Shown here one piece after another: positions 5,751-40,922 of a stretch of DNA of 41,731 bases. Both the position numbers and the translations under genes were made by a program. The stretch is from a virus (Duplodnaviria > Caudoviricetes), in IMG/VR virus record IMGVR_UViG_3300043652_000023, positions 1-41,731 of that record, one strand, 5' to 3'. Position 1 is the stretch's first letter, and each line of letters starts with the position of its first letter. Under the pieces are notes generated by a model. That model was not told the origin of the DNA, searched no databases, and saw only the letters and a list, made by a program, of their open reading frames with translations.

Positions 5751-5756
5751 GTGTCC

Positions 5757-5970: not shown

Positions 5971-6108
5971 GATCCAACCACGGGCTTGCCCACCGCGCAA
6001 GTCGGTTGGGGAAGGACTGCTCAATGCGCAAGTACATTAAGGCACTGGACTGCACAAAAAGAAGGTCGGCTCCGGTACTTGCCAGCGAAGCAAGCAACGT
6101 GATAAACT
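5971..6108. promoter_or_regulatory. Divergent promoter region with three palindrome copies
   Basis: 5985-6001 (-), 6016-6032 (-), 6078-6094 (+; TTGCCA-18-TAAACT). Confidence 0.65.
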
Positions 6109-6165
6109 GGTGGTCCAGTCCACGAGGGCGGCAACGCTCGACGGGCGCAGCAACGTTACCGAGAG

Positions 6166-7374
6166 GTGAAGACAGTGGAGGGAACAACTCAGGCGCCCGA
6201 GCTGGTTGGCGAGCGCGCCGTGCCAGTCGACCGCCGCACACGTCGCGGCCTCGGCCGAGTTGCGGTGAAGTCAGCGTCCGAGCAGGCCAAGTTCGACGAG
6301 GGCCTGCGACGCAGGCGCGCCAGCCGCGAGGACACGGCCGACAAGATCGAGGCCGACCGACAGACGCGGGCGCTGAAGGCCGAGGCACGATCCGAGCGGA
6401 TGGCTCGGGCTAGGTCGATGGCGGCCAAACTGGGGCGAGTGGTCATGATCACGGTCCCGATCGTCTCGCCGATGGCGGTGGCGTGGACGGGACAGGCCGG
6501 GTTCGCCGGTCGGGTTCTGGGCTGGCCGCTGGCGGCGGCGTTGCTCTACGCGGCGGCCTACGAGCTGTCGACCGTGTTCTGCGCCTGGATGTCCCACGAG
6601 GCCAAGGCCGACGGAGATCGAGGCACCGTGTACCGGGTCGCAACCTGGGTGTTCTGCTTCGGAGCCGCTGCGCAGCAGTGGTGGCACTACTCGATCAACT
6701 GGGAGCCGACCTCCCGATCTGTGATCTTCAGCTCGATGTCGATCGTAGGTCTGGCGGTCTGGGAACTGTACGAGCGACTGATCAGCCGACGAGCACTGCG
6801 GGAGGCAGGCCGGATCGGGAAGGCCCGACCCAAGATCGATCTCGCCCGCTGGGTGCGGTATCCTCGGATCTCCTGGCACGCCTGGTCGATCTCGATCCTG
6901 CACGACATCAGTACGCTGGACGAGGCGTGGACCCGGGCCGAGATCGAGATCGGTCGACGTCGGACCCAGAAGGACCTAAGGCGAGAGGTCCGCGAGCTGC
7001 GCAAGCAGTTGGAGATCGGTAAATCCGGACCCGAGGAGGCCAAGCCGATCTCGACTCCGCCTGGGGGCGTGGTGACCCTGGACCGCGAGCCGGTAAAGGC
7101 GGTGGCCGCAGCAGGTGAATCTCGGCCGGATCAAGGCAAGGCTGAGCTTCCGGCCATAGAGGCTCGACCTGCAGCAGCAAGCGAGGAGGCTGGCGACTTC
7201 ACGCCGACCAGCATCGAGAAGCAGGCCCTGGCGAACATGGTCAGCGGGGGTCTGAGCATCAACCGCGACAACTGCGCCACTGCCGTCCGTGAACTCGGCG
7301 GCGGGATCGCAACCAAGCGGGCGCGAGACCTGGCGGTTTGGGGTCGCGAGCACAAGGACAACGGCTTCGAGTGA
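6166..7374 (+). CDS. Spd/DUF2637-like multi-TM plasmid spread protein
   Basis: Coiled-coil N-terminus, about four TM helices, 'RW.R.PR.S..AW' motif typical of actinomycete plasmid Spd-type proteins; lies upstream of the TraB-like gene. Confidence 0.65.
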   Translation: MKTVEGTTQAPELVGERAVPVDRRTRRGLGRVAVKSASEQAKFDEGLRRRRASREDTADKIEADRQTRALKAEARSERMARARSMAAKLGRVVMITVPIVSPMAVAWTGQAGFAGRVLGWPLAAALLYAAAYELSTVFCAWMSHEAKADGDRGTVYRVATWVFCFGAAAQQWWHYSINWEPTSRSVIFSSMSIVGLAVWELYERLISRRALREAGRIGKARPKIDLARWVRYPRISWHAWSISILHDISTLDEAWTRAEIEIGRRRTQKDLRREVRELRKQLEIGKSGPEEAKPISTPPGGVVTLDREPVKAVAAAGESRPDQGKAELPAIEARPAAASEEAGDFTPTSIEKQALANMVSGGLSINRDNCATAVRELGGGIATKRARDLAVWGREHKDNGFE

Positions 7375-7554
7375 ACAGCGAGCGTCGCGCACGAGGCGGG
7401 TGAGACCCCGGCCGTGCACGTCGCCCATTGTTCAGTCAAACGCAAGGCGCACGGAAGCACGTCAGTAACACTGAGTAATTGTGACTGGGCCACAGTCACA
7501 CCGACACACCTCCCCTGTTGGGAAATTGTCCCAGGTCAGAGGGGGTCTGAGATA

Positions 7555-7591
7555 AATCACAATCTCAGTCTCAATCACGAATCACAGTCAC
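7555..7591 (+). repeat. Six degenerate hexamers A(A/G)TC(A/T)C, plus inverted repeat at 7480-7500
   Basis: aatcac aatctc agtctc aatcac g aatcac agtcac; TGTGACTG-N5-CAGTCACA. Confidence 0.6.
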
Positions 7592-7606
7592 GGGAGGTGA
7601 CAGCAA

Positions 7607-9439
7607 ATGGGAAAGAACAAGGACCAGCCGGTCATGCAGGTCCCTGAGGGTATCGTCCCGACGCAGCCGACGGGGTCTCCTGGCCCCTCGGACGTCGTGG
7701 CGGTACCGCTGGCCCCGGAGGTCGCTCCGAGCCCGGAGAAAGCCCCTCGGAGGCTTCGCAGCAAGGGTGTCCCAGCGGCGCCGGTGGCGTTGGCTGGCTT
7801 CAACACGGTAGCGGTCTCGGGGGCTGCTGCCTTCAGCGCATTCGGTCCCATCGGCGGCGTGGCAGTCGCAGGTATGGCGACGGCGGGGGCTGCTGCCCTC
7901 GTCAGCAAGCGGCGCAGCTCGGTCAAGAAGGCCAACGCCAAGAAGGCAGCGCTTAAGGCCGGGGCCTCGCACGGATCGGCCGCCGCCAGGTCGGGCAAGT
8001 GGTCTCCTGGGTCCGGATCTTCCGGCAAGCCTGGGGTGGCCAACAAGGCCGGGTCTGGATCTGGCCGGACGGGATCTGTCAAGGGTGGGTCGGGCGGATC
8101 TCCGATCGGGCCGAGGTCGGCCGGGTCGGGTCTGGGCTCGAAGTCGGCCGGATCTGGATCTGGCAGGCCGGGGTCGGGATCGGGATCGGGCCGAGGTCCG
8201 GCTGGATCGGGATCGGACCCGAAGAGGTCCGGATCCGGCAAGCACGGATCGAAGGCCGATCTCGGTGGGTCCGGATCTCGGAAGGGGTCGGCCGGACCTG
8301 GGTCGGTAGGCACCGGCGGATCGGGCAAGAAGGGTCTGTTCGGCCTCGGATCGAAGTCCGGAAAGGCCGGGGTCGGATCGGCCCAGGGTGGCGGCAAGGG
8401 CAAGCACGGATCGGGATCGGCCGCCGGTCAGTCCGGATCTGGGTCGGTCGGCAAGAAGGACCGACCTCGCCTGCTGAAGTCGAGCCCCACTCGAACGTCG
8501 CTGCTCCGCAAAGCGGTCGGACCCAAGCCGGGGTCGGTCGGCCAGAACGGATCGACCGCGCCCAAGCGAGGCAAGGGGATCCGGGGCAACAAGGGCCCGC
8601 GACGTCAGTCGATCCCCGGGCAGCGTGGCGGGATCGTCCGGCGCGGTGACGGATCGAGGCGCCAGCCGATCAAGGCCACGACCAACGGAGCCAAGGCGGT
8701 CGGCAACGCAGGTCGGATCGTCGGCCACGGGGTTCGGCGGGCGCACAACAGCAAGGTAGGTACGGCCGCCCGCAAGTGGTCGATCGGCGGAATCAAGAAG
8801 TCGTTCGGAGTGGGCTGGCCCGCCACCGCCGCCGCTGTCCGAGGGGTAACCTCCCTCGCAGGCGGCAAGGGGTTCCGGGGCGCGTTCCAGGCGATGAAGG
8901 ACAACTGGTCCAAGAAGAGGGCACGCTGGTCGAAGGACAGCAAGCACGGTAAGGCGGCGGCAGCAGCTGCAGCCCTGGCCAAGCCGGTGGTTCCGGCGTC
9001 GACAGTCAACTATCCCGACAAACTGGTCGGGGCGAACGCCGGACGTCCGGCGCACACTGGAGGTGTGAACAGCATGCTGCAAGCTCGATTCATTGAGGCC
9101 GCCGCCGAAATGCTCGGTGCGGCGCAGGTCTACAAGCCTGAAGGCATGATGCAGGTCGGCAACGACTTTTCGGCCATGCCGGAGGCGTTCCGCAACATCG
9201 CCAACGCCATGCAGGTGATGGCGCAGCGAGCGCACGACGAAGACCCGATTCACCCGGCCATCCTCGACCAGATGGAGACGGTCTACCAGCACCTGCTGGC
9301 CGCATCCACCGCAGCCGAGGAACTGGCGCCCGCGTTCGAGAACCTGCACGCGGTCGACATCAAGCGTCTCCGCGAGCCGCGTCGAAACGAGCACGCTTGG
9401 GATGTCGCTTCGAACCGAGACCACGTCAGCCGAGCCTGA
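7607..9439 (+). CDS. Gly/Ser/Lys-rich protein with N-terminal TM and helical C-terminal domain (plasmid transfer accessory-like)
   Basis: GGAGG RBS; low-complexity GS repeats; possible internal start at ATG 9074 after GGAGG 9059; directly precedes the TraB-like gene. Confidence 0.7.
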   Translation: MGKNKDQPVMQVPEGIVPTQPTGSPGPSDVVAVPLAPEVAPSPEKAPRRLRSKGVPAAPVALAGFNTVAVSGAAAFSAFGPIGGVAVAGMATAGAAALVSKRRSSVKKANAKKAALKAGASHGSAAARSGKWSPGSGSSGKPGVANKAGSGSGRTGSVKGGSGGSPIGPRSAGSGLGSKSAGSGSGRPGSGSGSGRGPAGSGSDPKRSGSGKHGSKADLGGSGSRKGSAGPGSVGTGGSGKKGLFGLGSKSGKAGVGSAQGGGKGKHGSGSAAGQSGSGSVGKKDRPRLLKSSPTRTSLLRKAVGPKPGSVGQNGSTAPKRGKGIRGNKGPRRQSIPGQRGGIVRRGDGSRRQPIKATTNGAKAVGNAGRIVGHGVRRAHNSKVGTAARKWSIGGIKKSFGVGWPATAAAVRGVTSLAGGKGFRGAFQAMKDNWSKKRARWSKDSKHGKAAAAAAALAKPVVPASTVNYPDKLVGANAGRPAHTGGVNSMLQARFIEAAAEMLGAAQVYKPEGMMQVGNDFSAMPEAFRNIANAMQVMAQRAHDEDPIHPAILDQMETVYQHLLAASTAAEELAPAFENLHAVDIKRLREPRRNEHAWDVASNRDHVSRA

Positions 9440-9452
9440 CGCCCACGTTCCG

Positions 9453-9483
9453 CTTGCGCTCTTGGCAAGTTCCATGGTAAGAT
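9453..9483 (+). promoter_or_regulatory. Cassette promoter/operator upstream of the TraB-like gene
   Basis: CTTGCGCTCTTGGCAAG; TTGCGC-18-TAAGAT with extended TG. Confidence 0.75.
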
Positions 9484-9550
9484 TGAGATGATACCAAGGA
9501 GCTTGCCGGGAGCGCAGGCGGTTATCTGTTTCTTAGGGAGGTGCAGCAAC

Positions 9551-11674
9551 ATGGCAAAGAACATCGACTTCGACCGAGGTCACTCGCCCATCTCGGGCAC
9601 GATTAACGCCGCGTACACCGCGCTGTCGGTGGCCGCTGTCGGCCACGAAACCGGACTGCCCGCCAGCTGGTCGCTCGGCGTCGCCGGAGTCGGCGCGGTC
9701 GGTTCAGCTATTGCGGGCGCGTCCCATGAGCCCAAGCTGTCCGGCGGCTCGATCGCCCTGCGCGCGTCGGCATGGTTGGCTGGCGGCGGCTGGGTGTCCT
9801 GGGCGCTCACACAGCCGACCGTTTACGACTGGCATGTCGTCGGCCCGCTGCTGGCAGCTGCGTGCGGCTTCGGATCAGCGGTCGGCGTCCTGTCGTCCAA
9901 GAAGAAGAGGGAAGAGCGTCGGCAGTTGGCCGCGTATTCCGCCCTGTTCCGGGTCAAGACCGGCCAGGAGTGGACCGACCGCATCTCGCGTGTCTGCCAT
10001 GTCGAAAACTGCCAGGTCATCGCCGTAGAGCAGTGGACCGACGAGGGCGGCAAGAAGAACGACTCCGGGTTCACGATCGAAATCCAGATGCCGCAGGGTG
10101 GCGCCACCTGGCGTCAGCTCGCGCGGATGACCGACGAGCTGGCTTCCGATGCCAACCTGCCTGAGGGCTGCGGCATTGAGGTGTTCGCCGGTAAGAGCCG
10201 AGGCACGGCCATCATGAAGGTGTCGACGAAGAACTGGCTGACCGCGACCCAGAACGTGCCTCACGACGCGTCCCCGCTGTCCTTCGAGGATGACTTCGAC
10301 ATCGGCGTCCTGCGTGACGGCGGCCTGGCCACCATCAACATCCGGGAATTCTCCGCGATGCTGGTCGGTGCCAAGCGTACCGGCAAGACCAACCAGCTGC
10401 TGACCATGATCACGCGGTTCCTCCGGATGCCCAACCTTCGGGTGTGGGTGATCGACTTCAATGGGGGTGGCGTTGCGCTTCAGTGGCTGCGTGCCTGGGA
10501 TGCCCTCGGTCGACCCGGCCGACCGCCGATCGACTGGGTGGCTTCGAACATCCGCGAGTCCGCGATGATGGCGGAAGCGGCGGTTCGCGTGGCCAAGGCC
10601 CGCAAGGTCGAGTACCAGCAGCTGATGGCTGACGCCGACACCGACCTGTTGCCGATGACGGCCGACATCCCGGGCATCCTCATCATCACCGACGAGGGCG
10701 CTGAGATCTACGCCAACCCGAAGGCCCGCCCAGCGTCCGACCCGATGAAGGAGGTCCTGCGAATCGCGGGTTCGTCCGGCGTCAACCAGCTGAACTGCTT
10801 CCTGCGTGCCACGGCCGACACGACCGGGGACACCATCGTCAAGTCGCAGTCTCGGGTGCGCATCGGCATGATGCAATCGGCCGAGGAGGAGATCGGATAC
10901 CTTCACGGTTGGAAGTGTGGCATCAAGCCGGAGGACATGCCGGACCGAGGATACGCTGGCGTGTCCCAGGATGAGAACGGCAGCGCCCAGGTGATGCGCG
11001 GTTACCGCACCTTGCCCAGTGACATCAAGTGGTTCGTCGAGCACACGGTCCGGTACCGTGAGAACTCGGCGTTCGACGAGGTCAGCACCCGGGCGCTCGG
11101 TGGGGACTACGAGGGTCGCTGGTCCGACGAGCGCTCGGGGTACATCTTCACCGGCCGGACAGCACCGGAGGGCGAGCCGGAGATGGCTGGCCGCCAGCCG
11201 GAGCCGACCGACCAGGGCGACGGGGAGGACGACTTCTTCGCCAAGCGCGGGAAGGCCAACGACCCGGAGCAGACCAAGCTCAACCTGCGCAAGGCCGTCG
11301 AGGAGGGCGGCGGTCCGTCCGTGGACGAGCGAGCCGAGTTCGACCGGGTCATTCGCGAGGCGGGGGTGGCGGACTGGGACAACCCGGCTACCTGGGCCGA
11401 GGGCGGCAACGAGGAGCAGCCTCCCGCCGCTCCGACCGAGGACGAGTCGGCCGACGACGAGGGTGACACCCTGCGCGCGGTGGTGTTCGGTCTGGTCAAG
11501 GCAATGACGCCGGAGGGCGGAATCTCGGTCGGCGATATCGTCAAGTCGCTGCAGCGCCAGTACGGCAAGGACACCCCGCGACGCGAGACCATCACCAGGT
11601 GGCTTCGCGAGGACGAGCGCATTTTTAAGCCTACCGGGTATGGCAAGTATGCAGTGCGAGACGAGGACATGTGA
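9551..11674 (+). CDS. traB: FtsK/SpoIIIE-family TraB-like conjugative DNA translocase
   Basis: N-terminal TM helices, Walker A GAKRTGKT, Walker B ILIITDE, acidic linker, C-terminal winged-helix-like domain; GGAGG RBS before ATG 9551. Confidence 0.75.
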   Translation: MAKNIDFDRGHSPISGTINAAYTALSVAAVGHETGLPASWSLGVAGVGAVGSAIAGASHEPKLSGGSIALRASAWLAGGGWVSWALTQPTVYDWHVVGPLLAAACGFGSAVGVLSSKKKREERRQLAAYSALFRVKTGQEWTDRISRVCHVENCQVIAVEQWTDEGGKKNDSGFTIEIQMPQGGATWRQLARMTDELASDANLPEGCGIEVFAGKSRGTAIMKVSTKNWLTATQNVPHDASPLSFEDDFDIGVLRDGGLATINIREFSAMLVGAKRTGKTNQLLTMITRFLRMPNLRVWVIDFNGGGVALQWLRAWDALGRPGRPPIDWVASNIRESAMMAEAAVRVAKARKVEYQQLMADADTDLLPMTADIPGILIITDEGAEIYANPKARPASDPMKEVLRIAGSSGVNQLNCFLRATADTTGDTIVKSQSRVRIGMMQSAEEEIGYLHGWKCGIKPEDMPDRGYAGVSQDENGSAQVMRGYRTLPSDIKWFVEHTVRYRENSAFDEVSTRALGGDYEGRWSDERSGYIFTGRTAPEGEPEMAGRQPEPTDQGDGEDDFFAKRGKANDPEQTKLNLRKAVEEGGGPSVDERAEFDRVIREAGVADWDNPATWAEGGNEEQPPAAPTEDESADDEGDTLRAVVFGLVKAMTPEGGISVGDIVKSLQRQYGKDTPRRETITRWLREDERIFKPTGYGKYAVRDEDM

Positions 11675-12384
11675 GCCTGACCGAGACAGAGCGCGACGTA
11701 CTCGACACCCTGCAGCGTTTGGGTGTCGAGGCGTCCGCCGCCAGCATAACTGAACTCCTACTACTGGTCAGCAGATCAGAGGTCAGGAGGCGAGCGGCGG
11801 AGGTGGCGCAGTTGGCAGCCAGACCAACCGTACCTAGCCAACGGTCGCACGACCCGATCGTGTACTTTGTCCGTAACGGAAACATGGTCAAGATCGGCAC
11901 CACTACCAATCTGAGACGGCGCATGTCTAAGCTGTCTCAGCGAATGGACAACGTCGTGAAGAAGGTTCCCGGTGGCCGAGACGTCGAAGCCCAGTACCAC
12001 CGTAGGTTCACCAGCTTGCGGGATGGCAAAACCGAATGGTTCCGGCTTGAGGGCGCTCTGGCGGAGCTGCTGGGCGAGGAGGACACCGCGTCTCCGTCGG
12101 ACAGGCTCCGCAGAGTACTGGAGGAAGCCGGAGAATCGCCAGAGGGCTGGGAGCCGTCAGCCGACGACGGGGCCGATAGCACCCGGGCGGTGGTGTTCGG
12201 CCTGGTCAAGGAGATGACTCCGCAGGGCGGCCTTATGGTCGGCGAGATCGTCAAAACCCTGGTGGCGATGTACGGCGAGCAGGTCGCACCTCGTCGGCAG
12301 ACGGTAACCCGGTGGCTCCGCGAGGACGACCGAGTCTTCCAGCCGACCTACGGCAAGTATGCGGTGCGAGACGAGGACATGTAA
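11671..12384 (+). CDS. GIY-YIG/T5orf172-domain protein fused to a copy of the TraB C-terminal domain
   Basis: IVYFVR....VKIGTTTNLRRRM...E..YHRRF......TEWF; C-terminus nearly repeats TraB (RAVVFGLVK...RWLRED...YGKYAVRDEDM); GTGA overlap. Confidence 0.8.
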   Translation: MSLTETERDVLDTLQRLGVEASAASITELLLLVSRSEVRRRAAEVAQLAARPTVPSQRSHDPIVYFVRNGNMVKIGTTTNLRRRMSKLSQRMDNVVKKVPGGRDVEAQYHRRFTSLRDGKTEWFRLEGALAELLGEEDTASPSDRLRRVLEEAGESPEGWEPSADDGADSTRAVVFGLVKEMTPQGGLMVGEIVKTLVAMYGEQVAPRRQTVTRWLREDDRVFQPTYGKYAVRDEDM

Positions 12385-12396
12385 CCGAACACGCGA

Positions 12397-12427
12397 AGGC
12401 CCCCGCCGGAAGATCCGGCGGGGGCCT
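12397..12427. terminator. Bidirectional terminator
   Basis: AGGCCCCCGCCGGA-AGA-TCCGGCGGGGGCCT between convergent genes. Confidence 0.75.
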
Positions 12428-12436
12428 CGTGCTGTG

Positions 12437-20914: not shown

Positions 20915-21154
20915 ATGCGACTCGTGTTGATCACGATAGAAGAAGCTGTCATTTGGACTGGACGTTCAAGGGCAACCATCTGGCGTTGGGCTCAAAATGG
21001 CCGCATCGAGAAGTACCGGACAGGCTCCGGCACTCGGTTCGATCTGAACGAGCTGAACCCGAGAACCGACGATGGCCCTGGCGACGCTCCTCCGTTGAAG
21101 AAACTGGAGCCGACGGATGCCATCGTTTCAAGCGCTTGCGCCCGAGGTCGTTGA
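20915..21154 (+). CDS. Small HTH (excisionase/MerR-like) DNA-binding protein
   Basis: LITIEEAV.WTGRSRATIWRWAQNGRI...RFDLNEL. Confidence 0.7.
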   Translation: MRLVLITIEEAVIWTGRSRATIWRWAQNGRIEKYRTGSGTRFDLNELNPRTDDGPGDAPPLKKLEPTDAIVSSACARGR

Positions 21155-21704
21155 CGCGGTCGTTGCCGACCTGCAGTCCGGCCTGTACGGCCGTAACGAG
21201 ATTGCCCGCCGGAACTACATCGGCCGGGCCACTGTTACGGGCATTGCCCGAGACCATGGCCTCGACCCCAGCAGGGGCAACGACATCACGGCCACCGCCA
21301 ACAAGGCTCGCGCGATCCAGACCCACGAGCGCCGCCAGCAGATCAAAGAGGAGCTGCTTGGCGACGTCGAGCGTCTCCGCGTGCGGGCTTGGTCGCCCTG
21401 GTCCAAAGAGGTCGTCACCCGCGAGGGCATCGAGTCGCTGCACGCCGAGTTGCCGCCGCTGCCTGAGGTTCAGGCGGCTTACCGGTCGATCGGCGTCGCC
21501 CTCGACTCCTACTTCAAGCTCGAAGCGCTGGACACCGCAGGCGAGGGCTCGACCCAGCAGGCCCGAGACTTCCTGGTCGACCTGCACGACAAGCTGACCG
21601 AGGCTCGCGAGGACTACGAGACCAACCCCCGCGCGGCCGAAGAAGACACCGCCCCCGGCCCGGTGACCATCCCGGGCGAGGTGGTGTCGGAGGGCGCTTC
21701 GTGA
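21117..21704 (+). CDS. terS: Terminase small subunit (N-terminal HTH)
   Basis: RNEIARR..IGRATVTGIAR HTH; GTGA-coupled to the large terminase. Confidence 0.7.
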   Translation: MPSFQALAPEVVDAVVADLQSGLYGRNEIARRNYIGRATVTGIARDHGLDPSRGNDITATANKARAIQTHERRQQIKEELLGDVERLRVRAWSPWSKEVVTREGIESLHAELPPLPEVQAAYRSIGVALDSYFKLEALDTAGEGSTQQARDFLVDLHDKLTEAREDYETNPRAAEEDTAPGPVTIPGEVVSEGAS

Positions 21705-22990
21705 GCGTCCTCGAAAAGCTGGCCGATAGGCTCAGCGTGAAGCAGGCCATCAGCCTGGTCGACAGTTTCGCCCGAATCAACGTCTGGCACGGCTCGATCC
21801 GGTCCGGAAAGACGTTCGTTTCGATCGTCGCCTTCCTGATGGCCCTGGTCCAAACGCCCAACGAGGGCTTGATCCTGATCTGCGGCCGGACGCTCGACAC
21901 CATCGGCCGGAACATCCTCGGCCCGATGACCGACGACGGCGTGATGGGCAAACTGCTGGCCTCCCAGGTCAAGTGGACCCCGGGCGCGAGCGTGGCTGTC
22001 ATTCTCGGCCGGACGGTCCACCTGGTGGGCGCGAACGACAAGCGGTCCGAGGGCAAGATCCGAGGCTCCACGGTCGCCCTCGTGTACGTGGACGAAGCGA
22101 CGCTGCTCCCCGAGGACTTCTGGAAGCAGCTGCTCGGCCGGATGAGCGTGGCTGGCGCGCAGCTGTTCGCCACCACCAACCCGGACAACCCGTCGCACTG
22201 GCTCCGCAAGAACTTCATCTCCCGGCAGGGCGAGCTGAACCTGGCGCACTGGCAGTTCGGCCTCGACGACAACCCGTCGCTCAACCCCCGCTACGTGAAC
22301 GACCTCAAAGCCGAGTACACCGGCCTGTGGTACAAGCGGTTCATCCTGGGCGATTGGGTGCAGAGTGAGGGCGCGGTCTACGAGATGTGGGACCCCGACC
22401 GCCACGTGGTCGACGTCCTGCCCTTGATGACCAAGTGGCTGGCGATCGGCATCGACTACGGCACTACCAACCCATTCAGCGGCCTCGTGCTCGGTCTGGG
22501 TGCCGACCGGCGGCTGTACCTCACCGGCGAGTACCGGTATGACAGCAAGCTGAGCAAGAGGCAGCTCACCGACGTCGAGTACTCGAAGCAGGTACGCAGC
22601 TTCCTCTTGCAGCACCCGATCCCAGGCAGCAGGCTGAAGGGCGTATCGCCCGACTGGTGGATTGTCGACCCCTCGGCGGCCTCGTTCCGAGTCCAGCTCT
22701 ACGAGGACGGCGTCACCGCGCGGCTGGCCAACAACGAGGTTAAGTCCGGCATCAACACCCTGGGCTCCCTGCTGGCAACCGACCGCCTGAAGGTGCACAG
22801 GTCGTGCACTGGATTCATCTCCGAAGCGCCCGCGTACAGCTGGGACGAGAAGCAGTCGAACGACGGCAAGGACGTCCCCGTCAAGGCGGATGACCACAGC
22901 CTCGACGCAGCCCGCTACGCGGTCTTCACAACCCGTCCGATCTGGCACGGCCTGCTGAAGGACGTCAACAACTTGGCAGCCGCCGCTTAA
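21701..22990 (+). CDS. terL: Terminase large subunit (PBSX-like)
   Basis: GSIRSGKT Walker A, YVDEAT Walker B, TTNP, GIDYG, DHSLDAARY nuclease motifs. Confidence 0.95.
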   Translation: MSVLEKLADRLSVKQAISLVDSFARINVWHGSIRSGKTFVSIVAFLMALVQTPNEGLILICGRTLDTIGRNILGPMTDDGVMGKLLASQVKWTPGASVAVILGRTVHLVGANDKRSEGKIRGSTVALVYVDEATLLPEDFWKQLLGRMSVAGAQLFATTNPDNPSHWLRKNFISRQGELNLAHWQFGLDDNPSLNPRYVNDLKAEYTGLWYKRFILGDWVQSEGAVYEMWDPDRHVVDVLPLMTKWLAIGIDYGTTNPFSGLVLGLGADRRLYLTGEYRYDSKLSKRQLTDVEYSKQVRSFLLQHPIPGSRLKGVSPDWWIVDPSAASFRVQLYEDGVTARLANNEVKSGINTLGSLLATDRLKVHRSCTGFISEAPAYSWDEKQSNDGKDVPVKADDHSLDAARYAVFTTRPIWHGLLKDVNNLAAAA

Positions 22991-23040
22991 CCACAATACA
23001 GACGACCACGGGTTGCCGTGGGCAACTCACAGCGGGGGGA

Positions 23041-24654
23041 GTGGCGGAAGTGCCTTTGCCGGATCGCAACGTGTTGTGGCCCCCGCAGGAGTGTAAAGAG
23101 GCGAAGAAGCATTACGACGAGTGGGGCGCGTGGTTCTCCGGCGACCCGCAGCAGCTCCGCCAGTACTACCAGGTCAGCAACGGCTTCGGCGCGCTGATCG
23201 ACCCGAAGCAGTACCCGGACAGCGCGAACAACCTGCTGGACCAGATCAGCAAATTCTTCTGGGGCAACCCGCCGGAGCAGGGCAATATCCGGGACGGCAA
23301 GCTGCACATCCCGCTCGCTGGCGACATCGCCAGCACCAGCGCCGACCTGCTGTACACCGAACCGCCCGCGTTCACCGTGGTCGAGGACCTGATCGGCGCG
23401 GAGCGCACCCAGGGCAGGCTCGACAAGATCGTCGACAACGGCATGATTCCCGCGCTGCTGGAGTCGGCGGAGGTGGCGTCCGCCATGGGCGGCGTTTACC
23501 TGCGGCTCACGGTAGACCCGGACATGGCCAATACGCCGCTGTTCGACGTGATTCCGCCGGAGTCGGCCGTGCCGATGTTCCGCAGCGGCAGGCTGCAGGC
23601 GGTCATCTTCTGGCGCAAGGTCGGGCAGATCGAGAATTCGGTCTTCCGGCATCTGGAGCTGCACGAGGTCGGCCGAGTGTGGCACGGCCTGTACCAGGGG
23701 TCGGACGAGGCCCTGGGCGAGCGGATCGACCTGCGGGCCATGGAGGAGACCTCCCAGTATTTCGACATCGTCGGCGAGGCCGGGTTTGTCGAGACGTTCT
23801 CCGACGGCCTCACGGCCGAGTACATCCCGAACATGCGGCCTAACCGGGTCATGAAGGGCAGCCCGTTCGGCCGGAGCGACTACCAGGGCATCGAAGCCAC
23901 GATGGACGCGCTTGACGAGGTGTGGTCGAGCCTGATGCGGGACGTCCGCCTGGGCAAATCCCGTCTGATCGTCCCCGAGAGCTACCTGGAGTCCAACGGC
24001 GTCGGCCGAGGAGCCAGGTTCAGTGCTGAGCGCGAGCTGTTCACCCCGGTCAAGGCCATGCCGGACAACGAGGGCGTCAGCATCGAACAGGTGCAGTTCA
24101 CCATTCGTGTGGACGAACACCTGGCCAGTGCGCGGATGCTGGCGGCTCAAGCGCTCCGAGGTGCGGGATACAGCGCCCAGACGTTCGGCGAGGGCGACCA
24201 GTCCGGCCCGGCCACGGCCACCGAGATCCAGGCCCGAGAGAGCCGCAGCTACACTACGCGGGACCGCAAGATCGGCTACCAGCGACCGGCGATCGCGAGA
24301 CTGGCCAGGGTGGCGCTGCAGATGGACAAGGCGTTCTTCGGCAGTGACGCTGGCGACGTCAGCGAGAACCCCAACCTGGAATGGCCGGACGGCGTTCAGA
24401 CCGACATGGAGACCACGAGCAAGGTGGTCCAGATGCTGGATGCGGCGAAGGCTGTCAGCTCGCGCACCAAGATCGAGATGGTGCACCCGCAGTGGGACAC
24501 CGGCCAGGTGCAGGAAGAGATCGAGCTGATCGAGGGCGAGGCGACCATTGCGGTCGACGTGCCCAACGGGGCGGACCAATTCGACGAGCCTGAGATGACC
24601 GACGCGGCTGACACCGACGAACCCGCTGAGCCCGCTGCGGAACCGGTCCGGTGA
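23041..24654 (+). CDS. Portal protein (SPP1/A118-like)
   Basis: Position after terL; 537 aa; GRSDY, TATEI motifs. Confidence 0.9.
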   Translation: MAEVPLPDRNVLWPPQECKEAKKHYDEWGAWFSGDPQQLRQYYQVSNGFGALIDPKQYPDSANNLLDQISKFFWGNPPEQGNIRDGKLHIPLAGDIASTSADLLYTEPPAFTVVEDLIGAERTQGRLDKIVDNGMIPALLESAEVASAMGGVYLRLTVDPDMANTPLFDVIPPESAVPMFRSGRLQAVIFWRKVGQIENSVFRHLELHEVGRVWHGLYQGSDEALGERIDLRAMEETSQYFDIVGEAGFVETFSDGLTAEYIPNMRPNRVMKGSPFGRSDYQGIEATMDALDEVWSSLMRDVRLGKSRLIVPESYLESNGVGRGARFSAERELFTPVKAMPDNEGVSIEQVQFTIRVDEHLASARMLAAQALRGAGYSAQTFGEGDQSGPATATEIQARESRSYTTRDRKIGYQRPAIARLARVALQMDKAFFGSDAGDVSENPNLEWPDGVQTDMETTSKVVQMLDAAKAVSSRTKIEMVHPQWDTGQVQEEIELIEGEATIAVDVPNGADQFDEPEMTDAADTDEPAEPAAEPVR

Positions 24655-25739
24655 ACCCCGAGGACGGGGAGGGGCTGGCCGACGAGGTGGTGGCGGCTTA
24701 CACCGAGGCCGAGACCACGCTGCTCGGCAGGATTGCAACCTTCCTGGGCTCTAAACTTGACGATGGCAACTGGTCTTTGTCAAATCGAAGCGGGTCAGGA
24801 TTCGTCCGACGCACAATAGCGTCTCTGGCGTCCAAACTGCTCAGCAAAGGTCGCAAGGCCGGAGCCAAGGCGACCAAGAAAGCGGCCGACCTGGGCGCTG
24901 CATCGGCCGACCAGGAGTTGGGCGGCTTGGCCGACGATCTGCCAGCGGCCGACACGAGTAAAGCGGCCAGCAACGGCTCGAAGCGTCTTAACGACGCGCT
25001 GGCTCCGGTCGAGAAGGCGATGCTCAGCCAGACCATGAACGCCTACCAACTCGTCATCACCGAGGTGAGCGCGGCGGTCGAGGCGGGCACCAGTAACCGA
25101 CTGGGTGCGGCGGGCAGGGCGCTGGCCAAATTCGCCAACGCCGGAATCACCGGTTTCGTGGACAAGGCCGGGCGGAACTGGGAAATCGCGACCTACGTCG
25201 AGATGGCAGTCCGAACCCAGGTCATGAACACCATGGTGGCGGCTCACACCGACCGCCTTGCGGAGGCCGGGGTCACCGTGGTCATGGTCAGCGAGGCCCC
25301 GTACGAGTGCCCTTTGTGCAAACCCTGGGAGGGCAAGCTTCTGGAGGTCGGCGGCAAATCGGGCAAGCACACCGTGACAATGCGGGTCGGCAACGAGGAC
25401 GTCAAGGTTACAGTAGACGGCTCGCTGGAAGAAGCGCGGTCCAATGGTCTGTTTCACCCCAACTGCCGACACAACACAACGGGCTACCTGCCGGGCCACT
25501 CCACTCCGGCCGCCAAAACCGGCAACAAGGGCGTCACGTACGAGGACACCCAGAAGCAGCGCGCTCTCGAACGACAGGCCCGAAAGTGGGACCGACGCAG
25601 GGCAGTGGCGCTAGACGACGACCAACGAAAGTTGGCCGACGACAAGGTTAAACAGTACAAGGCAGCGATCAAGGAGCACGTAGCCAAGACCAAGCTGCCA
25701 CGCAAGACCAACCGTGAACGACACGACGGTACGAGGTGA
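24651..25739 (+). CDS. Minor capsid / head morphogenesis protein
   Basis: GFVDKAGRNW...YVEMAVRT, CPLCKPWEG, GLFHPNCRH. Confidence 0.85.
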   Translation: MNPEDGEGLADEVVAAYTEAETTLLGRIATFLGSKLDDGNWSLSNRSGSGFVRRTIASLASKLLSKGRKAGAKATKKAADLGAASADQELGGLADDLPAADTSKAASNGSKRLNDALAPVEKAMLSQTMNAYQLVITEVSAAVEAGTSNRLGAAGRALAKFANAGITGFVDKAGRNWEIATYVEMAVRTQVMNTMVAAHTDRLAEAGVTVVMVSEAPYECPLCKPWEGKLLEVGGKSGKHTVTMRVGNEDVKVTVDGSLEEARSNGLFHPNCRHNTTGYLPGHSTPAAKTGNKGVTYEDTQKQRALERQARKWDRRRAVALDDDQRKLADDKVKQYKAAIKEHVAKTKLPRKTNRERHDGTR

Positions 25740-25744
25740 CTTCC

Positions 25745-25837
25745 ATGCGTGACAACCTGAACGTCTCGTTCCTGCTGCTCCTGGCAACCTTCATCCTGGT
25801 GTTGCTGATGTTCCTGGGCGTAACGCCCACCAACTGA
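25745..25837 (+). CDS. 30-aa single-TM micropeptide (MRDNLNVSFLLLLATFILVLLMFLGVTPTN)
   Basis: GAGGTGA RBS; fills the gap between head genes. Confidence 0.55.
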   Translation: MRDNLNVSFLLLLATFILVLLMFLGVTPTN

Positions 25838-25901
25838 CCTACTTCCAGCCGGATTGACTCCGGCGACGACCCGGGGGCGGGACGCTCCCAGGAGGCAAAC
25901 A

Positions 25902-26801
25902 ATGTCTACTCCGATCGAGCCCGCAGCCGCCGCACCGGACCTCCCCGCGCCCACGGGAGAGCCTGGGACAGCCGCCCCGGCCCCGGAGCCCCCGGCCGCT
26001 CCCGCAGGCTCTCCGGACCCCAGCGGGACCGCTCTCCCGGACGGCGTGATGGTGTCCGGCCGCGCGCTGGACGGAACCGCCCCCGGCTTCGCGACTCCGG
26101 GTCAGCCTGCCTCCACCCCGTCAGGGCAGGCTGACCCGGTGGTTACCGACCCGGCCGCTGGCGCGGCCCCCGCCGCACGACCCGAGATCACCGACCTGCC
26201 CGAGTGGGCACAGACGCTGATCAAGGACACGCGCGAGGAGGCCGCCCGCACCCGGGTGGACGCCAAAGCCAAGGCCGCCGAAGAGGCGGCAGTGGCGGCC
26301 ACGAAGAAAGTGACCGAGGACATCGGCCGGGCGCTCGGTCTGATCACCGACGACACCCCGCCGGAAGAGCAGCTCACCCCCGAGCAGCTCCAAGAACTCC
26401 TGTCCGGAGAGCGCACCTCGACCAAGATGGCGCGCACCGAGCTGGCCGTATTCAAGGCCGCCACCTCTGGCCAGTTCAACGCTTCGGCGTTGCTCGACTC
26501 CCGGTCGTTCCTCGACGCTGTCAAGGAGATCGACCCGGGTGACCATGAAAAGATCGGCGAGGCCATCGCGGCTGCTGTCGAGGCCAACCCCTGGCTGAAG
26601 GCAACCGCGCCTACGGCCGCTCCCCAGGGCGCGCCCCCGGTTGACCCGGCCGCGCCCGCAACGCCCCCGGCCGCTCCTGCGGCCACACCTCCTGTCGCCC
26701 CCCCGGGCGGCACGTTTGCCGGTGGACCCGGTGGACGGAACACGGACCTTTCGTCCATGTCTATCGACGATTTCCGGGCTATGCGCCGGAACAACACCTG
26801 A
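25902..26801 (+). CDS. Capsid scaffolding protein
   Basis: AGGAGG RBS; Pro/Ala-rich, LPEWAQ..I...R.EAA..R, LLDSRSF; precedes the major capsid gene. Confidence 0.85.
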   Translation: MSTPIEPAAAAPDLPAPTGEPGTAAPAPEPPAAPAGSPDPSGTALPDGVMVSGRALDGTAPGFATPGQPASTPSGQADPVVTDPAAGAAPAARPEITDLPEWAQTLIKDTREEAARTRVDAKAKAAEEAAVAATKKVTEDIGRALGLITDDTPPEEQLTPEQLQELLSGERTSTKMARTELAVFKAATSGQFNASALLDSRSFLDAVKEIDPGDHEKIGEAIAAAVEANPWLKATAPTAAPQGAPPVDPAAPATPPAAPAATPPVAPPGGTFAGGPGGRNTDLSSMSIDDFRAMRRNNT

Positions 26802-26822
26802 GCAAACGGAGGTTAGCCAGCG

Positions 26823-27749
26823 ATGGCCAACACGTTCCTTACCCCTGACATCATCGCGCGCGCTGCGCTCGCCACCCTGTACGAGACCACGGTCATGGCC
26901 GGACTCGTCTACCGGGACTACGAGCAGGAGTTCCAGCAGGTCGGCGACACCATCACCATCCGGAAGCCCACCACGTTCACCGCGCAGGAGTACAACCGCA
27001 CTGCCGGTATCAACGTTCAGAACGCGACGGAGACCGGCGTTCCTCTGACGCTGAACCACTTCGCCGACGTGTCGTTCGCGGTCACGTCCGAGGACCTCAC
27101 CCTGAACGTGCTGGACTTCGGCCAGCAGCTGCTGAACCCGGCGATGGAAGCCATCAGCCAGAAGATCGACCGCGACATCATGGCGCTGTCGGCCGACATC
27201 AGCCAGACGGTCGGCGTGGTCGACGGTACGAACTCCCCGCTCCCGGGCGAGAACGGCTGGCGCTACGACGACCCGAAGGCCGCGATCGACGCCGGTCGTG
27301 TCCTGACCCAGCGCAACGTGCCGATCACCGGCCGCCGCCTGGTTCTCGGCCCGATCACCACGGCCTCGTGGATGGGCGACCCGTTCTTCATCCGTGCGGA
27401 CACGCGCGGCGACACCGAGGGCCTGCGTGAGGCCAACCTCGGTCGGCGGGTGTACGGCTTCGACGCGTACCAGTCGCAGAACGTTCCGGCCCCCGGCGTC
27501 GGCGGTTCCTCGACCGAGACGGGCATCGCGTTCCACCAGACCGCGCTGGCCCTGGCGTTCCGCCCGCTCGCCCTCCCCAGGGGCGCAGCCAACGCGGCTA
27601 TCGCCAACTACAAGGGCTTCGGCCTGCGCGTCGTGTACGACTACGACGTGGACAAGAAGCAGGACGTCGTCTCGATCGACTGCCTGTACGGCACCAAGGT
27701 TCTGGACCCGAACCGTGCGGTCCTCATCCAGGGCCCTGCGGGCAGCTGA
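26823..27749 (+). CDS. Major capsid protein (P22-coat/HK97-fold type)
   Basis: MANTFLTP.IIA..AL..L, GDTITIRKP, D.LYG.K.L.P; very high codon bias. Confidence 0.9.
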   Translation: MANTFLTPDIIARAALATLYETTVMAGLVYRDYEQEFQQVGDTITIRKPTTFTAQEYNRTAGINVQNATETGVPLTLNHFADVSFAVTSEDLTLNVLDFGQQLLNPAMEAISQKIDRDIMALSADISQTVGVVDGTNSPLPGENGWRYDDPKAAIDAGRVLTQRNVPITGRRLVLGPITTASWMGDPFFIRADTRGDTEGLREANLGRRVYGFDAYQSQNVPAPGVGGSSTETGIAFHQTALALAFRPLALPRGAANAAIANYKGFGLRVVYDYDVDKKQDVVSIDCLYGTKVLDPNRAVLIQGPAGS

Positions 27750-28675
27750 TGCGAGTCGTCCTACTCGGCGCGCCCCGGCCTCTTCACCTGAATCGTTGGA
27801 AAGACGACATGGCAGAGGCGGGGGTGGTGCTGGGCTGGGACGTTTTGCATCTACCGGCCAGGGGCCTGACCACCGACCAGGTGGTTCGGGTCTCGGCCGG
27901 GTGCGACCTGTTCATCTGGGCGCGCACCCACGGGCACTACCCGGAGGGCGACCTCCACGGCATGCTCCGCCGGATCGAGGACTCAGGCACCCCAACGGTC
28001 GGCGTGCACTTCGACCTGTACTGGGGCCTGGGCACCCGGGAAGACCAGATCGGCGTCGACCCCTGGTGGTCCCACCAGTTCGTGTTCACTGCGGACGGCG
28101 GGCACCAGGCCGAATTCGCGGCGCGCGGGGTCAACCATTACTGGATGCCACCCGCTCTCGGCCATCGCTGGCTGGGGGCTGGCCGACCGAGCCCAGCATT
28201 CGGCGCGCTGGACGCGGTGTTCACCGGCTCCAACCTCCGGGCCATACACGGCGAGCACCGGCGGCAGCTGCTCGACTGGGCCACCACCAAATGGGGTCGG
28301 TCGTTCCGGATGTTCGGCGGCATGACCCAGGTGTGGGGCGCTGACCTCAGCCACCTGTACGCATCCACCCGAACCGTGCTGGGGGACAGCGCCCCGGCCG
28401 ACCGATATTGGTCGGACCGGGTGCCCTCGGTGCTCGGTCGCGGCGGCCTGCTGGCTCACCCCAACACTGTTGGATTCGAGGGTCAAGGGGTAACGGGGGA
28501 AGTGGCGGTGTTGTTCGACCGCTTCGACTTCGCCGGACTCGGCGACCAGCTGTCCGCACTTACCGACCACGACCGCACAACGATGCGGCAGAACGCCCTC
28601 GACTTGGTGCGCGATCGACATCTGTTCACCCACCGGCTGCAACAGATTCAAGAGGTCGTGTTCCAGTGCGGGTGA
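27749..28675 (+). CDS. Glycosyltransferase (GT-B, CgeB-like)
   Basis: YWSDRVP..LGRGGLL.HP and RHLFTHRL C-terminal motifs. Confidence 0.75.
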   Translation: MRVVLLGAPRPLHLNRWKDDMAEAGVVLGWDVLHLPARGLTTDQVVRVSAGCDLFIWARTHGHYPEGDLHGMLRRIEDSGTPTVGVHFDLYWGLGTREDQIGVDPWWSHQFVFTADGGHQAEFAARGVNHYWMPPALGHRWLGAGRPSPAFGALDAVFTGSNLRAIHGEHRRQLLDWATTKWGRSFRMFGGMTQVWGADLSHLYASTRTVLGDSAPADRYWSDRVPSVLGRGGLLAHPNTVGFEGQGVTGEVAVLFDRFDFAGLGDQLSALTDHDRTTMRQNALDLVRDRHLFTHRLQQIQEVVFQCG

Positions 28676-29355
28676 TCGTCGCGGCATCCGGCAGCCAGCA
28701 CAAGTGGGGAAACCACCTCGGTGTACCCTCACACCTGGTTCCGGTCCGCGACCCACTGCGGGCAGGCGGCAAGGAGCTGCTGTTGCATCGCACAGTCCGG
28801 CAGGCCTTTGACAGGCTCGGCCCGGACGTGCACCTCACCGCGCCCCCAGGTGACGACCGGTACAGGCTGCCGGGCGTTGCCACGCACGAGCGCTCGCCAG
28901 GCGACTTCGGCAACGAGTACCTGGCGAGCCGCGATCTGTGGTCGACCACCGGTCCAACTGTCCTGCTGCTGGGCGACGTCTATTTCACCGACCGCGCAAT
29001 GCGCGCGATCCGGGGACATCACCAGGCAGCCAAGACTTACCGGGTGTTCGGCCGGTACATGGGGTCACAACAGACAGGCACACCGTACGGCGAGATCTTC
29101 GCCGTGTCGTTCTGGCCCAACTGTCACAACATGCTAGACCGCCATCTCGCCCGCGTCGTGCGGGCGTTCCACAATGGCGAATCCAAGAGGCGTGACGGCT
29201 GGACGCTGTTGCGCTCAATCCAGGGCACGCCGCTCAACGAGCACATCGTCTGCCAGCCGTGGTTCGTCGAGATCAACGATTGGACCGACGACATCGACTT
29301 CCCGGCCGACTACGAGCGGCACCCGGCGACGAGGACTAAACAATGGGTAACGTGA
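28666..29355 (+). CDS. Sugar nucleotidyltransferase-like (GT-A fold) protein
   Basis: VIVAASG...W...GVP.HL, ELLLHRTVRQ, VLLLGDVYF, DDID. Confidence 0.65.
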   Translation: MRVIVAASGSQHKWGNHLGVPSHLVPVRDPLRAGGKELLLHRTVRQAFDRLGPDVHLTAPPGDDRYRLPGVATHERSPGDFGNEYLASRDLWSTTGPTVLLLGDVYFTDRAMRAIRGHHQAAKTYRVFGRYMGSQQTGTPYGEIFAVSFWPNCHNMLDRHLARVVRAFHNGESKRRDGWTLLRSIQGTPLNEHIVCQPWFVEINDWTDDIDFPADYERHPATRTKQWVT

Positions 29356-29987
29356 TGGCGGCCTTCCCGGGCCTGATCAGGCGCCTGGGGGTCGACCCCT
29401 CCGGCCAGCTCGTCCACGTGGGCGCGCACGAAGGCCAAGAGATGCCGTACTACTACGAGGCCGGGTTCACCAACATCGTGCTGGTCGAGCCCATCCCGCA
29501 GTTGGTCCGCCAACTGCGCACCCGGTTTCCCGGAGCCGACGTTGTGCAGGCCGCCTGCTCCGACGTCGACGGTTCGGCCAACTTCCACCTGATGGCCAAG
29601 AGCAACATGTCGACGCTGGCCGATCCGCTGCCGATCGACCACGTTGTGGACACCTTTGTTGTGTCCACTCGGCGGCTGGACTCGATCGCGCCCAACGCCA
29701 AGGTAGCGGTTATCGACGCTCAGGGCCTCGAACTTGAGGTGCTGGAGGGCGCGCCCTGGGACAGCCTCGAACTGCTGATCGTGGAGTCGTGCACCGAGGA
29801 CGATTCCACGATGGCCAGCCCGTACGACCTGGTGACCGAGGTCGTCACAACGCACGGATTCGTCGAGGTCGACCGGTGGGTCCGGGATTACGACTTCGTC
29901 AACAAGTGGGCGCGCGGCAACCGCCAGCAGAAGGTCACCGGCGGCGAAGTTCGCGATGTTGTGTTCCAGCGAGGTGACCTGCTGTGA
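29343..29987 (+). CDS. FkbM-family methyltransferase
   Basis: VHVGAHEG, VEP.P, RRLDSI, IDAQGLELEVLEGA. Confidence 0.85.
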   Translation: MGNVMAAFPGLIRRLGVDPSGQLVHVGAHEGQEMPYYYEAGFTNIVLVEPIPQLVRQLRTRFPGADVVQAACSDVDGSANFHLMAKSNMSTLADPLPIDHVVDTFVVSTRRLDSIAPNAKVAVIDAQGLELEVLEGAPWDSLELLIVESCTEDDSTMASPYDLVTEVVTTHGFVEVDRWVRDYDFVNKWARGNRQQKVTGGEVRDVVFQRGDLL

Positions 29988-31069
29988 GCGTTGCCGTTCT
30001 GGTCCCGTTCGACACCAGCGATCCACAACGCGCCCAGGTTTGGGCGTACCTGCTGGAGCGTTGGCAGGTCGCCCACCGAGACTGGCCCGTGTTCACCGGG
30101 CGGGATCGCACCGAGGGCGGGTGGCGCAAGGCCGAGGCCATCAAGGACGCCCTGTCGCAGACCGACGCCGACATCCTGATCGTTGCCGACGCCGACATCT
30201 GGTGCGACCGCGTTGCCGACGCTGTTGTGGCCGTGCAACAAGGCCAAGCTAAGTGGGCTGTCCCGCAGCTGGCCGTACATCGCCTGAGCGAGAAGACAAC
30301 GGCCGACCTGCTGAACGGCACGCGCGTGCTGGAGCGACCCGGCAACGCGCTGGAGGTTCACGTTGCAACGCAGGGTGGCGGCCTGACGGTCCTCACCCGC
30401 GAAGTCCTCGAAGGCGTCCCAATCGACCCCGCGTTCAGCGGCTGGGGCCAGGAGGACGAATCCTGGGCGCTGGCCCTGAACACCCTCGCCGGACCAGCCT
30501 GGCGGGGCAACACCTGGTTGACCCACCTGTGGCACCAGCCGCAGGAACGACTGTCCCGAGAAATTGGGTCGGATGCGGGTAGGGCGCGCTACCGTCAGTA
30601 CCAGCAGGCGGCGGGCAATCAGCCCGCGATGCGCGCCCTGATCTCGGAATTCTGCCCAACTCCTCTGGAAGGTTACGTGATGACCAGCCACCGTTACCGC
30701 AACAAGAACACCACCGAGGTCGTCGAGTACTCGCGCCCCAACGCGCGTCTCGAATACCTGCAGAACTGGGACAAGCTGGTCGACGGCGAGCCGGAGCCCG
30801 AGGCCGCCCCCGCTGGCAGCGGCGGTCTGCTCGGCCAGCCCCAGGTCGGCGACACTCCGCTCGAAGAGCGTGGTGCGACCCTGCCCGCTTCGGATGCCGA
30901 CTGGGACGTGCCCGCGTCCCAGACCGCTCCTGTCGGCCCGGACCCGAAGAACCGACCGGCCAAGGGCGCAACCAAGGAAGCCTGGGTCAACTGGGCGATC
31001 GAGGGCGGCTGTTCCCGCGAGGACGCCGAGCGACTCACCAAGCCCGAACTCATCGAGATCTACAGCTAG
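29984..31069 (+). CDS. Family-2-like glycosyltransferase with a fused C-terminal phage domain
   Basis: VAVLVPF, DAD motif, F.GWG.ED; C-terminal 130 aa are unrelated and preceded by an internal GGAAGG..GTG/ATG. Confidence 0.8.
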   Translation: MSVAVLVPFDTSDPQRAQVWAYLLERWQVAHRDWPVFTGRDRTEGGWRKAEAIKDALSQTDADILIVADADIWCDRVADAVVAVQQGQAKWAVPQLAVHRLSEKTTADLLNGTRVLERPGNALEVHVATQGGGLTVLTREVLEGVPIDPAFSGWGQEDESWALALNTLAGPAWRGNTWLTHLWHQPQERLSREIGSDAGRARYRQYQQAAGNQPAMRALISEFCPTPLEGYVMTSHRYRNKNTTEVVEYSRPNARLEYLQNWDKLVDGEPEPEAAPAGSGGLLGQPQVGDTPLEERGATLPASDADWDVPASQTAPVGPDPKNRPAKGATKEAWVNWAIEGGCSREDAERLTKPELIEIYS

Positions 31070-31081
31070 GAGCCCAACGTC

Positions 31082-31534: not shown

Positions 31535-31542
31535 GGAGCCGC

Positions 31543-31908: not shown

Positions 31909-31938
31909 CCACAACACAACGCGAGGGAGGGCGGGCCG

Positions 31939-35070: not shown

Positions 35071-35071
35071 G

Positions 35072-36063: not shown

Positions 36064-36076
36064 GGGGGGTGGCGCG

Positions 36077-36864: not shown

Positions 36865-36882
36865 TGTGACCGGAGGTCACCA

Positions 36883-38084: not shown

Positions 38085-38097
38085 GGGGGGTGGCGGA

Positions 38098-40917: not shown

Positions 40918-40922
40918 CCGCA

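Follow-up and report, generated by a model that had tools for sequence, protein, structure and literature searches.

TraB of plasmid pSVH1 is described as a hexameric channel whose C-terminus recognises the clt locus and which acts with Spd proteins in spreading across septa, and SpdB2 homologues carried by actinophages have been proposed to help phage DNA to spread (PMC4447253). Known clt loci are direct and inverted repeats close to tra (PMC3583192, PMC4447253), and a transfer locus belongs also to the already published Streptomyces plasmid-phage pZL12 (PMC3583192). Here we analyse a module of four plus-strand open reading frames (ORFs; 6166/6175-7374, 7607-9439, 9551-11674 and 11671-12384) in the virus record IMGVR_UViG_3300043652_000023, the whole of which (41,731 nucleotides) we refer to as the window. 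Sequence comparison supports placing the module's ATPase with actinomycete plasmid transfer proteins, and we propose, with a probability of roughly 55%, that the module encodes an early-expressed pump which, in the course of an apparently virulent infection, would carry phage DNA through cross-walls or points of hyphal contact. A preliminary description of the same DNA had delimited the interval 6166..12384; the genes it described are present, and a fourth gene inside the interval had been left undescribed. The features of the module are as follows.

6078..6108, plus strand: promoter heading the operon, with the palindrome TTGC-N7-GCAA over its -35 box (TTGCCA-18-TAAACT, extended -10)
6175..7374, plus strand: ORF1, a membrane protein whose basic N-terminus is followed by a hydrophobic core, a linker and a C-terminus that is helical and conserved
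7470..7606, no strand assigned: non-coding element, a candidate clt-like loading site in which short 6-base direct repeats surround an inverted one
7607..9439, plus strand: ORF2, 610 residues, with two hydrophobic helices, a long basic Gly/Ser-rich low-complexity part and a conserved C-terminal helical hairpin domain
7900..8720, plus strand: CGGATC-type words arrayed with a strand bias within ORF2, candidates for sites that the pump recognises
9074..9439, plus strand: C-terminal domain of ORF2, 121 residues, with its own in-frame ATG and Shine-Dalgarno sequence, directly 5' of the ATPase gene
9453..9483, plus strand: second copy of the promoter motif, 5' of the ATPase gene and private to the window phage
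9551..11674, plus strand: FtsK/TraB-like ATPase of 707 residues, in which a membrane anchor precedes the motor (with GAKRTGKT as Walker A and ITDE as Walker B), a linker and a winged-helix-like C-terminus at about residues 635-707
11671..12384, plus strand: ORF4, a T5orf172/MUG113 (GIY-YIG-like) domain fused to a winged-helix-like domain
12397..12427, plus strand: 13-bp GC-rich hairpin, terminator-like, ending the operon, as read from the sequence

The genes, their order and position and the promoter motif are those of the Hiyaavirus isolates Hiyaa, Spocter, Keanu and Galactica (Hiyaa gp98-gp102), relative to which the window adds the second promoter and the T5orf172-winged-helix gene and lacks a small gene after ORF1. 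The pZL12 genes 73c-72c-71c, which we take to be the published traA-C, likewise encode a membrane protein, a low-complexity protein with the common C-terminal domain and an FtsK-like ATPase beside head genes, and the two ATPases fall into one supported clade; pZL12 has, however, ParA, a tyrosine recombinase and a GntR regulator, none of which belongs to the Hiyaa clade, where DNA polymerase A and a PurZ0-like gene are present. With the TraB/Spd/clt systems of pSVH1, pIJ101, pSN22, pJV1 and pWTY27 the window has in common the membrane-motor-winged helix plan and repeats near the tra gene, and, as a remote lead only, an SpdB2-like partner; its ATPase nevertheless lies in a clade separate from the pSN22/pJV1/pWTY27/pIJ101 type and under the NCBIfam plasmid_TraB cut-off, no TraR/KorA adjoins the module, and the candidate sites lie partly within coding sequence. 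Finally, Thermobifida phage P1312 and Streptomyces prophages such as NZ_CP108596 carry a sister ATPase clade (30-37%) and the same ORF2 domain, the NZ_CP108596 prophage with a DUF2637 gene upstream, but they differ in their unrelated heads (HK97-type in NZ_CP108596), in the presence of recombinases and in repeat words that flip around the ORF1/ORF2 junction. Literature searches, which largely did not extend to subscription journals, found no study of the Hiyaavirus clade's module and nothing relevant on conjugative prophages in Streptomyces.

The ATPase and its partner proteins

The ATPase gene starts at 9551, which is preceded by the Shine-Dalgarno sequence AGGGAGG and from which homologues align from residue 1; a start at 9488 was rejected on the same two grounds. 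The protein is 58% identical over its full length to those of Hiyaa (gp102), Keanu, Galactica and Spocter, and is annotated in isolates as 'FtsK-like DNA translocase'. Its AlphaFold model, built on a 60-sequence alignment (predicted local distance difference test score, pLDDT, 85), consists of N-terminal helices, the FtsK motor, a linker and a C-terminal end of three helices and two short strands, winged-helix-like by this pattern, while hydropathy places a membrane anchor at the N-terminus. Walker residues G273, G278, K279, D381 and E382 are invariant in 60/60 aligned homologues, 57 of which have R or K as arginine finger. The membrane-anchored FtsK-type ATPase with a winged-helix-like C-terminus that the preliminary description had read from the sequence is thus borne out by hydropathy, fold, intact Walker motifs and the pattern of the model.

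To place the motor we used a tree of 43 rows (LG+G4), which has long branches, includes two chromosomal FtsK rows and contains neither EccC nor the TraB proteins of pSVH1 and SCP2. The ATPase falls in a clade of 8 (100/100) that is sister to prophage-type proteins (96/88), and a clade supported at 97/98 holds it together with pZL12.71c, Frankia pFQ12, Nocardiopsis pSQ10, a Streptomyces linear plasmid and Thermobifida phage P1312, with the TraB proteins of pSN22, pJV1 and pWTY27, pIJ101 Tra, TcpA and FtsK all outside. The phylogeny against TraB, FtsK and TcpA that had been suggested as a check accordingly groups the ATPase with plasmid transfer proteins rather than with FtsK or TcpA. Scans of viral and GTDB contigs with a single protein as query returned no genuine match, GTDB giving one spurious hit.

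The top matches of the model in structure searches are the FtsK motor (2iut, E 1e-14) and TcpA (6o1x, 3e-14), with EccC ranking lower. This ranking bears on the reading of the module as a type VII-like protein exporter, in which the ATPase would be an EccC analogue and the C-terminal hairpin of ORF2 a WXG100-like substrate. The best sequence-profile match in the PDB is indeed YukB (E 1e-6), and Esx proteins are among the tied matches of the hairpin (Z 7.3-7.8), but the ATPase has only one motor, which includes an FtsK alpha domain, and its C-terminus is of a DNA-binding type, FtsK and TcpA outrank EccC structurally, and the Z-scores of the hairpin are at background for helical bundles; we consequently rejected type VII secretion as very improbable. 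A second reading has the pump act inside one mycelium but not in lateral lytic spread: in prespore DNA loading, membrane anchoring of replication or the clearing of competing DNA. The best structural match is chromosomal FtsK, and the polar repeats of the sister prophages resemble directional segregation signals. FtsK and SpoIIIE act at division and sporulation septa (PMC3218068), yet the tree puts the ATPase with plasmid proteins and apart from the two chromosomal FtsK rows, and the partner domain in ORF2 occurs also on small plasmids with no virion genes annotated in the parts examined, which makes such a role quite unlikely in our view.

ORF2 is the Gly/Ser-rich accessory protein of the preliminary description, Gly and Ser making up 56% of residues 121-290. 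Its two conserved ends are 43-48% identical to the Hiyaa gp100/101 region, and full-length orthologues are Keanu gp93 and Galactica gp98; Hiyaa gp100 (27528-28856 in its locus) and Spocter gp97 are annotated on the opposite, wrong strand over the real ORF2. In 36 of 43 viral loci, and likewise in pZL12.72c and P1312, a profile of the C-terminal domain has a match upstream of the ATPase, and the domain is found in 16 plasmid records. Modelled from a single sequence (pLDDT 68), it forms a helical hairpin with generic hairpin matches only and no specific fold.

ORF1 is 45% identical to Hiyaa gp98 and matches no Pfam family. Three of its eight clade members match DUF2637 below the cut-off (best E 0.0011), a language-model search gives a top match of 0.93 in a cluster with 27% DUF2637 members, and iteration of a profile leads from ORF1 to four proteins scoring above the DUF2637 cut-off. 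Of the Spd/DUF2637-like membrane protein claimed earlier, the membrane protein stands, while the family label is a remote lead only: besides the lack of a Pfam match, the profile-profile probability against a profile of six DUF2637-type proteins is 0.7%, which is not significant. A lone DUF2637 gene is also present at 30893-31702 of an 85-kb Rhodococcus 'plasmid' (L053) with a capsid 46% identical; no ATPase match was found in the 50 kb fetched from it or in the plasmid search.

The winged-helix-like part of ORF4 is a 74% identical copy of the ATPase's own C-terminal domain, and no other full-length fusion of this type was found among 2892 candidates. ORF4 could have arisen when a nuclease gene was recently inserted and the domain duplicated, or it could be a DNA-binding accessory private to this phage. 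The hairpin that follows it was not reported by a terminator scan requiring a T tail.

Promoter motif and candidate loading sites

The motif TTGC-N7-GCAA occurs 17 times in the window, against 0-2 copies with spacers of 4-6 and 8-10 (six alternatives). All copies lie between 305 and 19655, in the non-structural half, with none in the head-tail region, and the motif usually supplies the -35 end of an extended -10 promoter. Hiyaa has 25 copies and the relatives G001, G002 and G004 have 25, 27 and 3, respectively, whereas none is present in the sister prophage or in the 30 kb of pZL12 examined. Because the Hiyaa copies stand ahead of helicase, polymerase and nucleotide-metabolism genes, with 0 in the first 27 kb (head-tail genes), the motif likely marks an early/middle promoter class. 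Its palindromic form suggests that it may also serve as an operator, for which a Cro/XRE-type protein, gp32 in Hiyaa, encoded in the half of the genome outside the window and conserved in Hiyaa, G001, G002 and G004 (51-55%), is a candidate binder.

The preliminary description had the same operator-promoter preceding both the first gene and the ATPase. Both copies are real (6079 and 9454, each followed by a -10-like hexamer), although a separate promoter scan picks up the former and misses the latter. The site 5' of ORF1 is kept in 8/8 relatives as read by eye, sometimes as a TTGTC variant, whereas that 5' of the ATPase was found in 0/9 relatives inspected. Leftward copies at 5986, 12685 and probably 12916 lie on both sides of the module, and the region 300-20200 is an array of short single-gene cassettes, each with a TTGC-N7-GCAA promoter and a GC hairpin.

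Two stretches are candidates for pump-loading sites. The non-coding element at 7470-7606 can be aligned across 8 clade members, in which the repeat words differ by lineage, and has a fold z of -2.9, equalled by 0/200 shuffles. Inside ORF2, CGGATC-type words number 15, against a mean of 3.8 and a maximum of 10 in 300 synonymous-codon shuffles and 2 on the other strand, the repeat words having been selected after inspection. An unbiased 6-mer scan finds the strongest local peak of the window, G001, G002 and G004 in ORF2, as CGGATC or CGGACC; CGGATC is not among the eight strongest local 6-mer peaks of Hiyaa.

The sister clade provides a second case. In 11 loci, chosen for a G[GT][AG]GCG-type word out of about 20 examined, this word exceeds all 300 shuffles in the forward orientation in ORF2 (11/11), and its reverse complement exceeds all shuffles in the upstream gene in 9 of the 11. 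The same word in two unrelated genes and in opposite orientation points to a signal at the DNA level, which protein low complexity does not explain; the window's own clade has no such orientation flip. In NZ_CP108596 (L009, 2940-5952) and in L028, L030, L022, L025 and L017, lineage-specific 6-mers change orientation where the DUF2637-type gene meets its neighbour, and the flip may mark the direction of pump loading. Recognition helix and motif covary at 0.19 (P 0.003), and at 0.21 (P 0.02) in the sister clade, in rows that share ancestry.

The phage, its relatives and its lifestyle

The window, with an estimated completeness of 51%, represents about half of a Hiyaavirus-like Streptomyces siphophage genome, the genes for lysis, replication and nucleotide metabolism belonging to the other half. 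Its gene order is colinear with Hiyaa, running through the Hiyaa right arm and then the left arm, across the end of the Hiyaa record into the terminase genes, at identities of 45-81% (terminase 76%, portal 71%, capsid 81%, tape measure 57%); the assignment is based on colinear structural and right-arm genes and the common promoter motif, rather than on genus-level nucleotide identity. The structural genes form a single feature.

21117..41731, plus strand: Hiyaa-like terminase, portal, P22-type capsid, tail tube and tape measure, truncated by the contig end

The terminase genes start 8.7 kb downstream of the module, in agreement with the distance of about 9 kb given earlier, but the head-tail operon called intact there is broken off in its tail part at the contig end.

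Could the module be a recent passenger or an assembly chimera without phage function? The region is present in two soil runs from two studies, the second holding a near-identical strain. Among the contigs compared there, no single one reaches from the module to the terminase; module and terminase have similar depth, however, and the module has the same order and position in four isolate genomes, Hiyaa, Spocter, Keanu and Galactica. A chimera is unlikely on both counts. Recent insertion was likewise rejected, given the same place and order in the isolates, the first promoter conserved in 8/8 relatives and a GC content like that of the surroundings, and with motor residues invariant this alternative is largely refuted and very improbable. 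The module is inherited and integral to the phage, as the preliminary description had held in arguing against a merely adjacent inserted element. Gordonia and Corynebacterium phages have capsids 41-51% identical and are absent among the 8 ATPase matches, in keeping with a function in filamentous hosts.

Replication, PurA-like and transfer genes of G002 and G004 (L060-L068) are as in Hiyaa, while their capsid genes differ, as if the head module had been swapped and the transfer module had stayed. Elsewhere in the window, five paralogues (2544-3233, 12965-13555, 14075-14566, 15013-16020 and 16970-17848) have an 'F.PGHDA.LK' segment after cysteines, belong to no Pfam family and are multiple in Hiyaa too. 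A small gene at 1436-1771 is a homologue of Hiyaa gp85, similar in size to WYL-domain genes of G001 and G002. Directly 3' of the capsid gene, 27749-31069 encodes a glycosyltransferase, an FkbM methyltransferase and a glycosyltransferase/head-tail connector fusion, which suggests virion glycosylation.

The preliminary description had further proposed a phage-plasmid. In this reading the genome would be a repressed circular replicon in a carrier state, maintained by prim-pol and an unrecognised partition system and conjugating like pZL12, which is its precedent; the passage of the window across the Hiyaa record end into gene 1 implies a circular or permuted genome, a conserved Cro/XRE-type gene accompanies a palindrome on about 25 promoters, and prim-pol proteins act as Rep in some integrative and conjugative elements of actinomycetes (AICEs; PMC3218068). 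We searched 34 records, nine of them of the close clade (four complete isolates, one record at 99%, one at 87% and three fragments, with two near-copy pairs). Serine recombinase, tyrosine integrase and ParA are each found in 0/9 close records, and a GntR regulator in one, none of the four isolate genomes having it. Among the other 25 carriers, recombinases are present in 19 (one under the cut-off), ParA in 3, GntR in 14 and a PurA-like gene in 0; the tape-measure profile finds a match in just 9 of the 25, and some may therefore be plasmids or AICEs. The positive control, pZL12, matches the ParA, integrase and GntR profiles. No ParB-type match was found in the ORFs scanned of G001 (47/56), G002 (68/82) and G004 (98/107) or in 31 Hiyaa genes, and no dedicated Rep profile was run on the close relatives.

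The close relatives carry DNA polymerase A, prim-pol, a helicase, a dUTPase and a PurB-like lyase, and seven of the nine have a PurA-like (PurZ0-like) gene, which is missing only from fragments of 31% and 55%. The PurA-like protein of Hiyaa has as its best PDB match 7VF6 (E 1e-83), the PurZ0 of phage Archimedes (PMC12884076). It shares 48% identity with its counterpart in Arthrobacter phage Wayne, whose DNA contains aminoadenine.

No Hiyaa-like plasmid is present among 72,556 plasmids, and PLSDB holds nothing resembling the clade's polymerase beyond generic PolA. Bacterial isolate names occur in 0/63 ATPase clusters at at least 40% identity, against 17 of the next 56, and in 0/40 of the closest terminase clusters, a result that is supporting rather than decisive as most clusters are nameless and Logan includes isolate runs. 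A repressor acting on the common promoters would, moreover, shut off the transfer genes in the plasmid state. With neither integrase nor ParA in the close clade, no resembling plasmid and no bacterial-named cluster, the phage-plasmid reading is unsupported and appears unlikely, although the phage may have an unrecognised carrier state.

Proposed role of the pump

We return to a pump working in the course of an apparently virulent infection. The operon would be made early, alongside the replication genes, and the ATPase and its two membrane partners would assemble at cross-walls or hyphal contacts, the ATPase probably as a hexameric pore like pSVH1 TraB and ORF1 as an SpdB-like septal partner. 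The winged-helix domain could then load the pump on the repeats at and inside ORF1-ORF2, and circular or concatemeric replicating phage DNA would be taken into neighbouring compartments before lysis, perhaps also into touching hyphae. Each recipient compartment would begin its own lytic cycle, so that one adsorption event could lead to a multi-compartment burst, and transfer to a different mycelium may be a by-product.

Several observations weigh against this reading. The ATPase matches neither Pfam FtsK_SpoIIIE nor, at E 0.01, NCBIfam plasmid_TraB (NF041214, pSN22/pWTY27 type), a family that pZL12.71c likewise fails (20 bits vs 800); it aligns with pZL12.71c at 28% identity over 45% only, and pZL12.71c is a long branch in the motor tree. 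The Spd link of ORF1 is weak in direct profile tests, and no BLAST similarity connects it with pZL12.73c, the two first genes having no detectable likeness. Of the GGATC copies in the window's ORF2, 22 of 25 are in one frame, as slippage in Gly/Ser tracts would give, and slippage remains a rival origin of the CGGATC words because the clade shows no flip, most copies share that frame and the words were chosen post hoc. The covariation of recognition helix and motif is not specific: scores as high are reached by 8% of 131 motor windows and by the remainder of the domain. The lifestyle is read from relatives at 43-61% ATPase identity, the half with the replication genes and any lysogeny genes lying outside the window, and the conserved Cro/XRE-type gene and the genome-wide palindrome could be a lysogeny repressor system.

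The conjugative temperate plasmid-phage pZL12 and the idea that phage DNA spreads were already known; new here are the repeat words within genes and the occurrence of the DNA pump in a PurZ0-like lineage that is integrase-less and ParA-less. We put forward tentatively that a strictly lytic, probably aminoadenine lineage has domesticated plasmid conjugation for capsid-free spread of its naked genome from cell to cell, both within a mycelium and from one mycelium to another, with loading on intragenic words. Such loading words, if real, would partly explain the need for 'adjacent genes' in the transfer of such systems. The locus speaks to the question of how phages handle compartmented, multicellular hosts: the pump is kept by a lineage in which no lysogeny genes are recognisable, and its promoter is of the class used by the replication genes. 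The module is present in four phages in culture that grow on laboratory Streptomyces hosts, which makes the speculation about phage-DNA spreading experimentally accessible. If the proposal is true, one infection could seed many compartments, bypass adsorption and outrun host containment.

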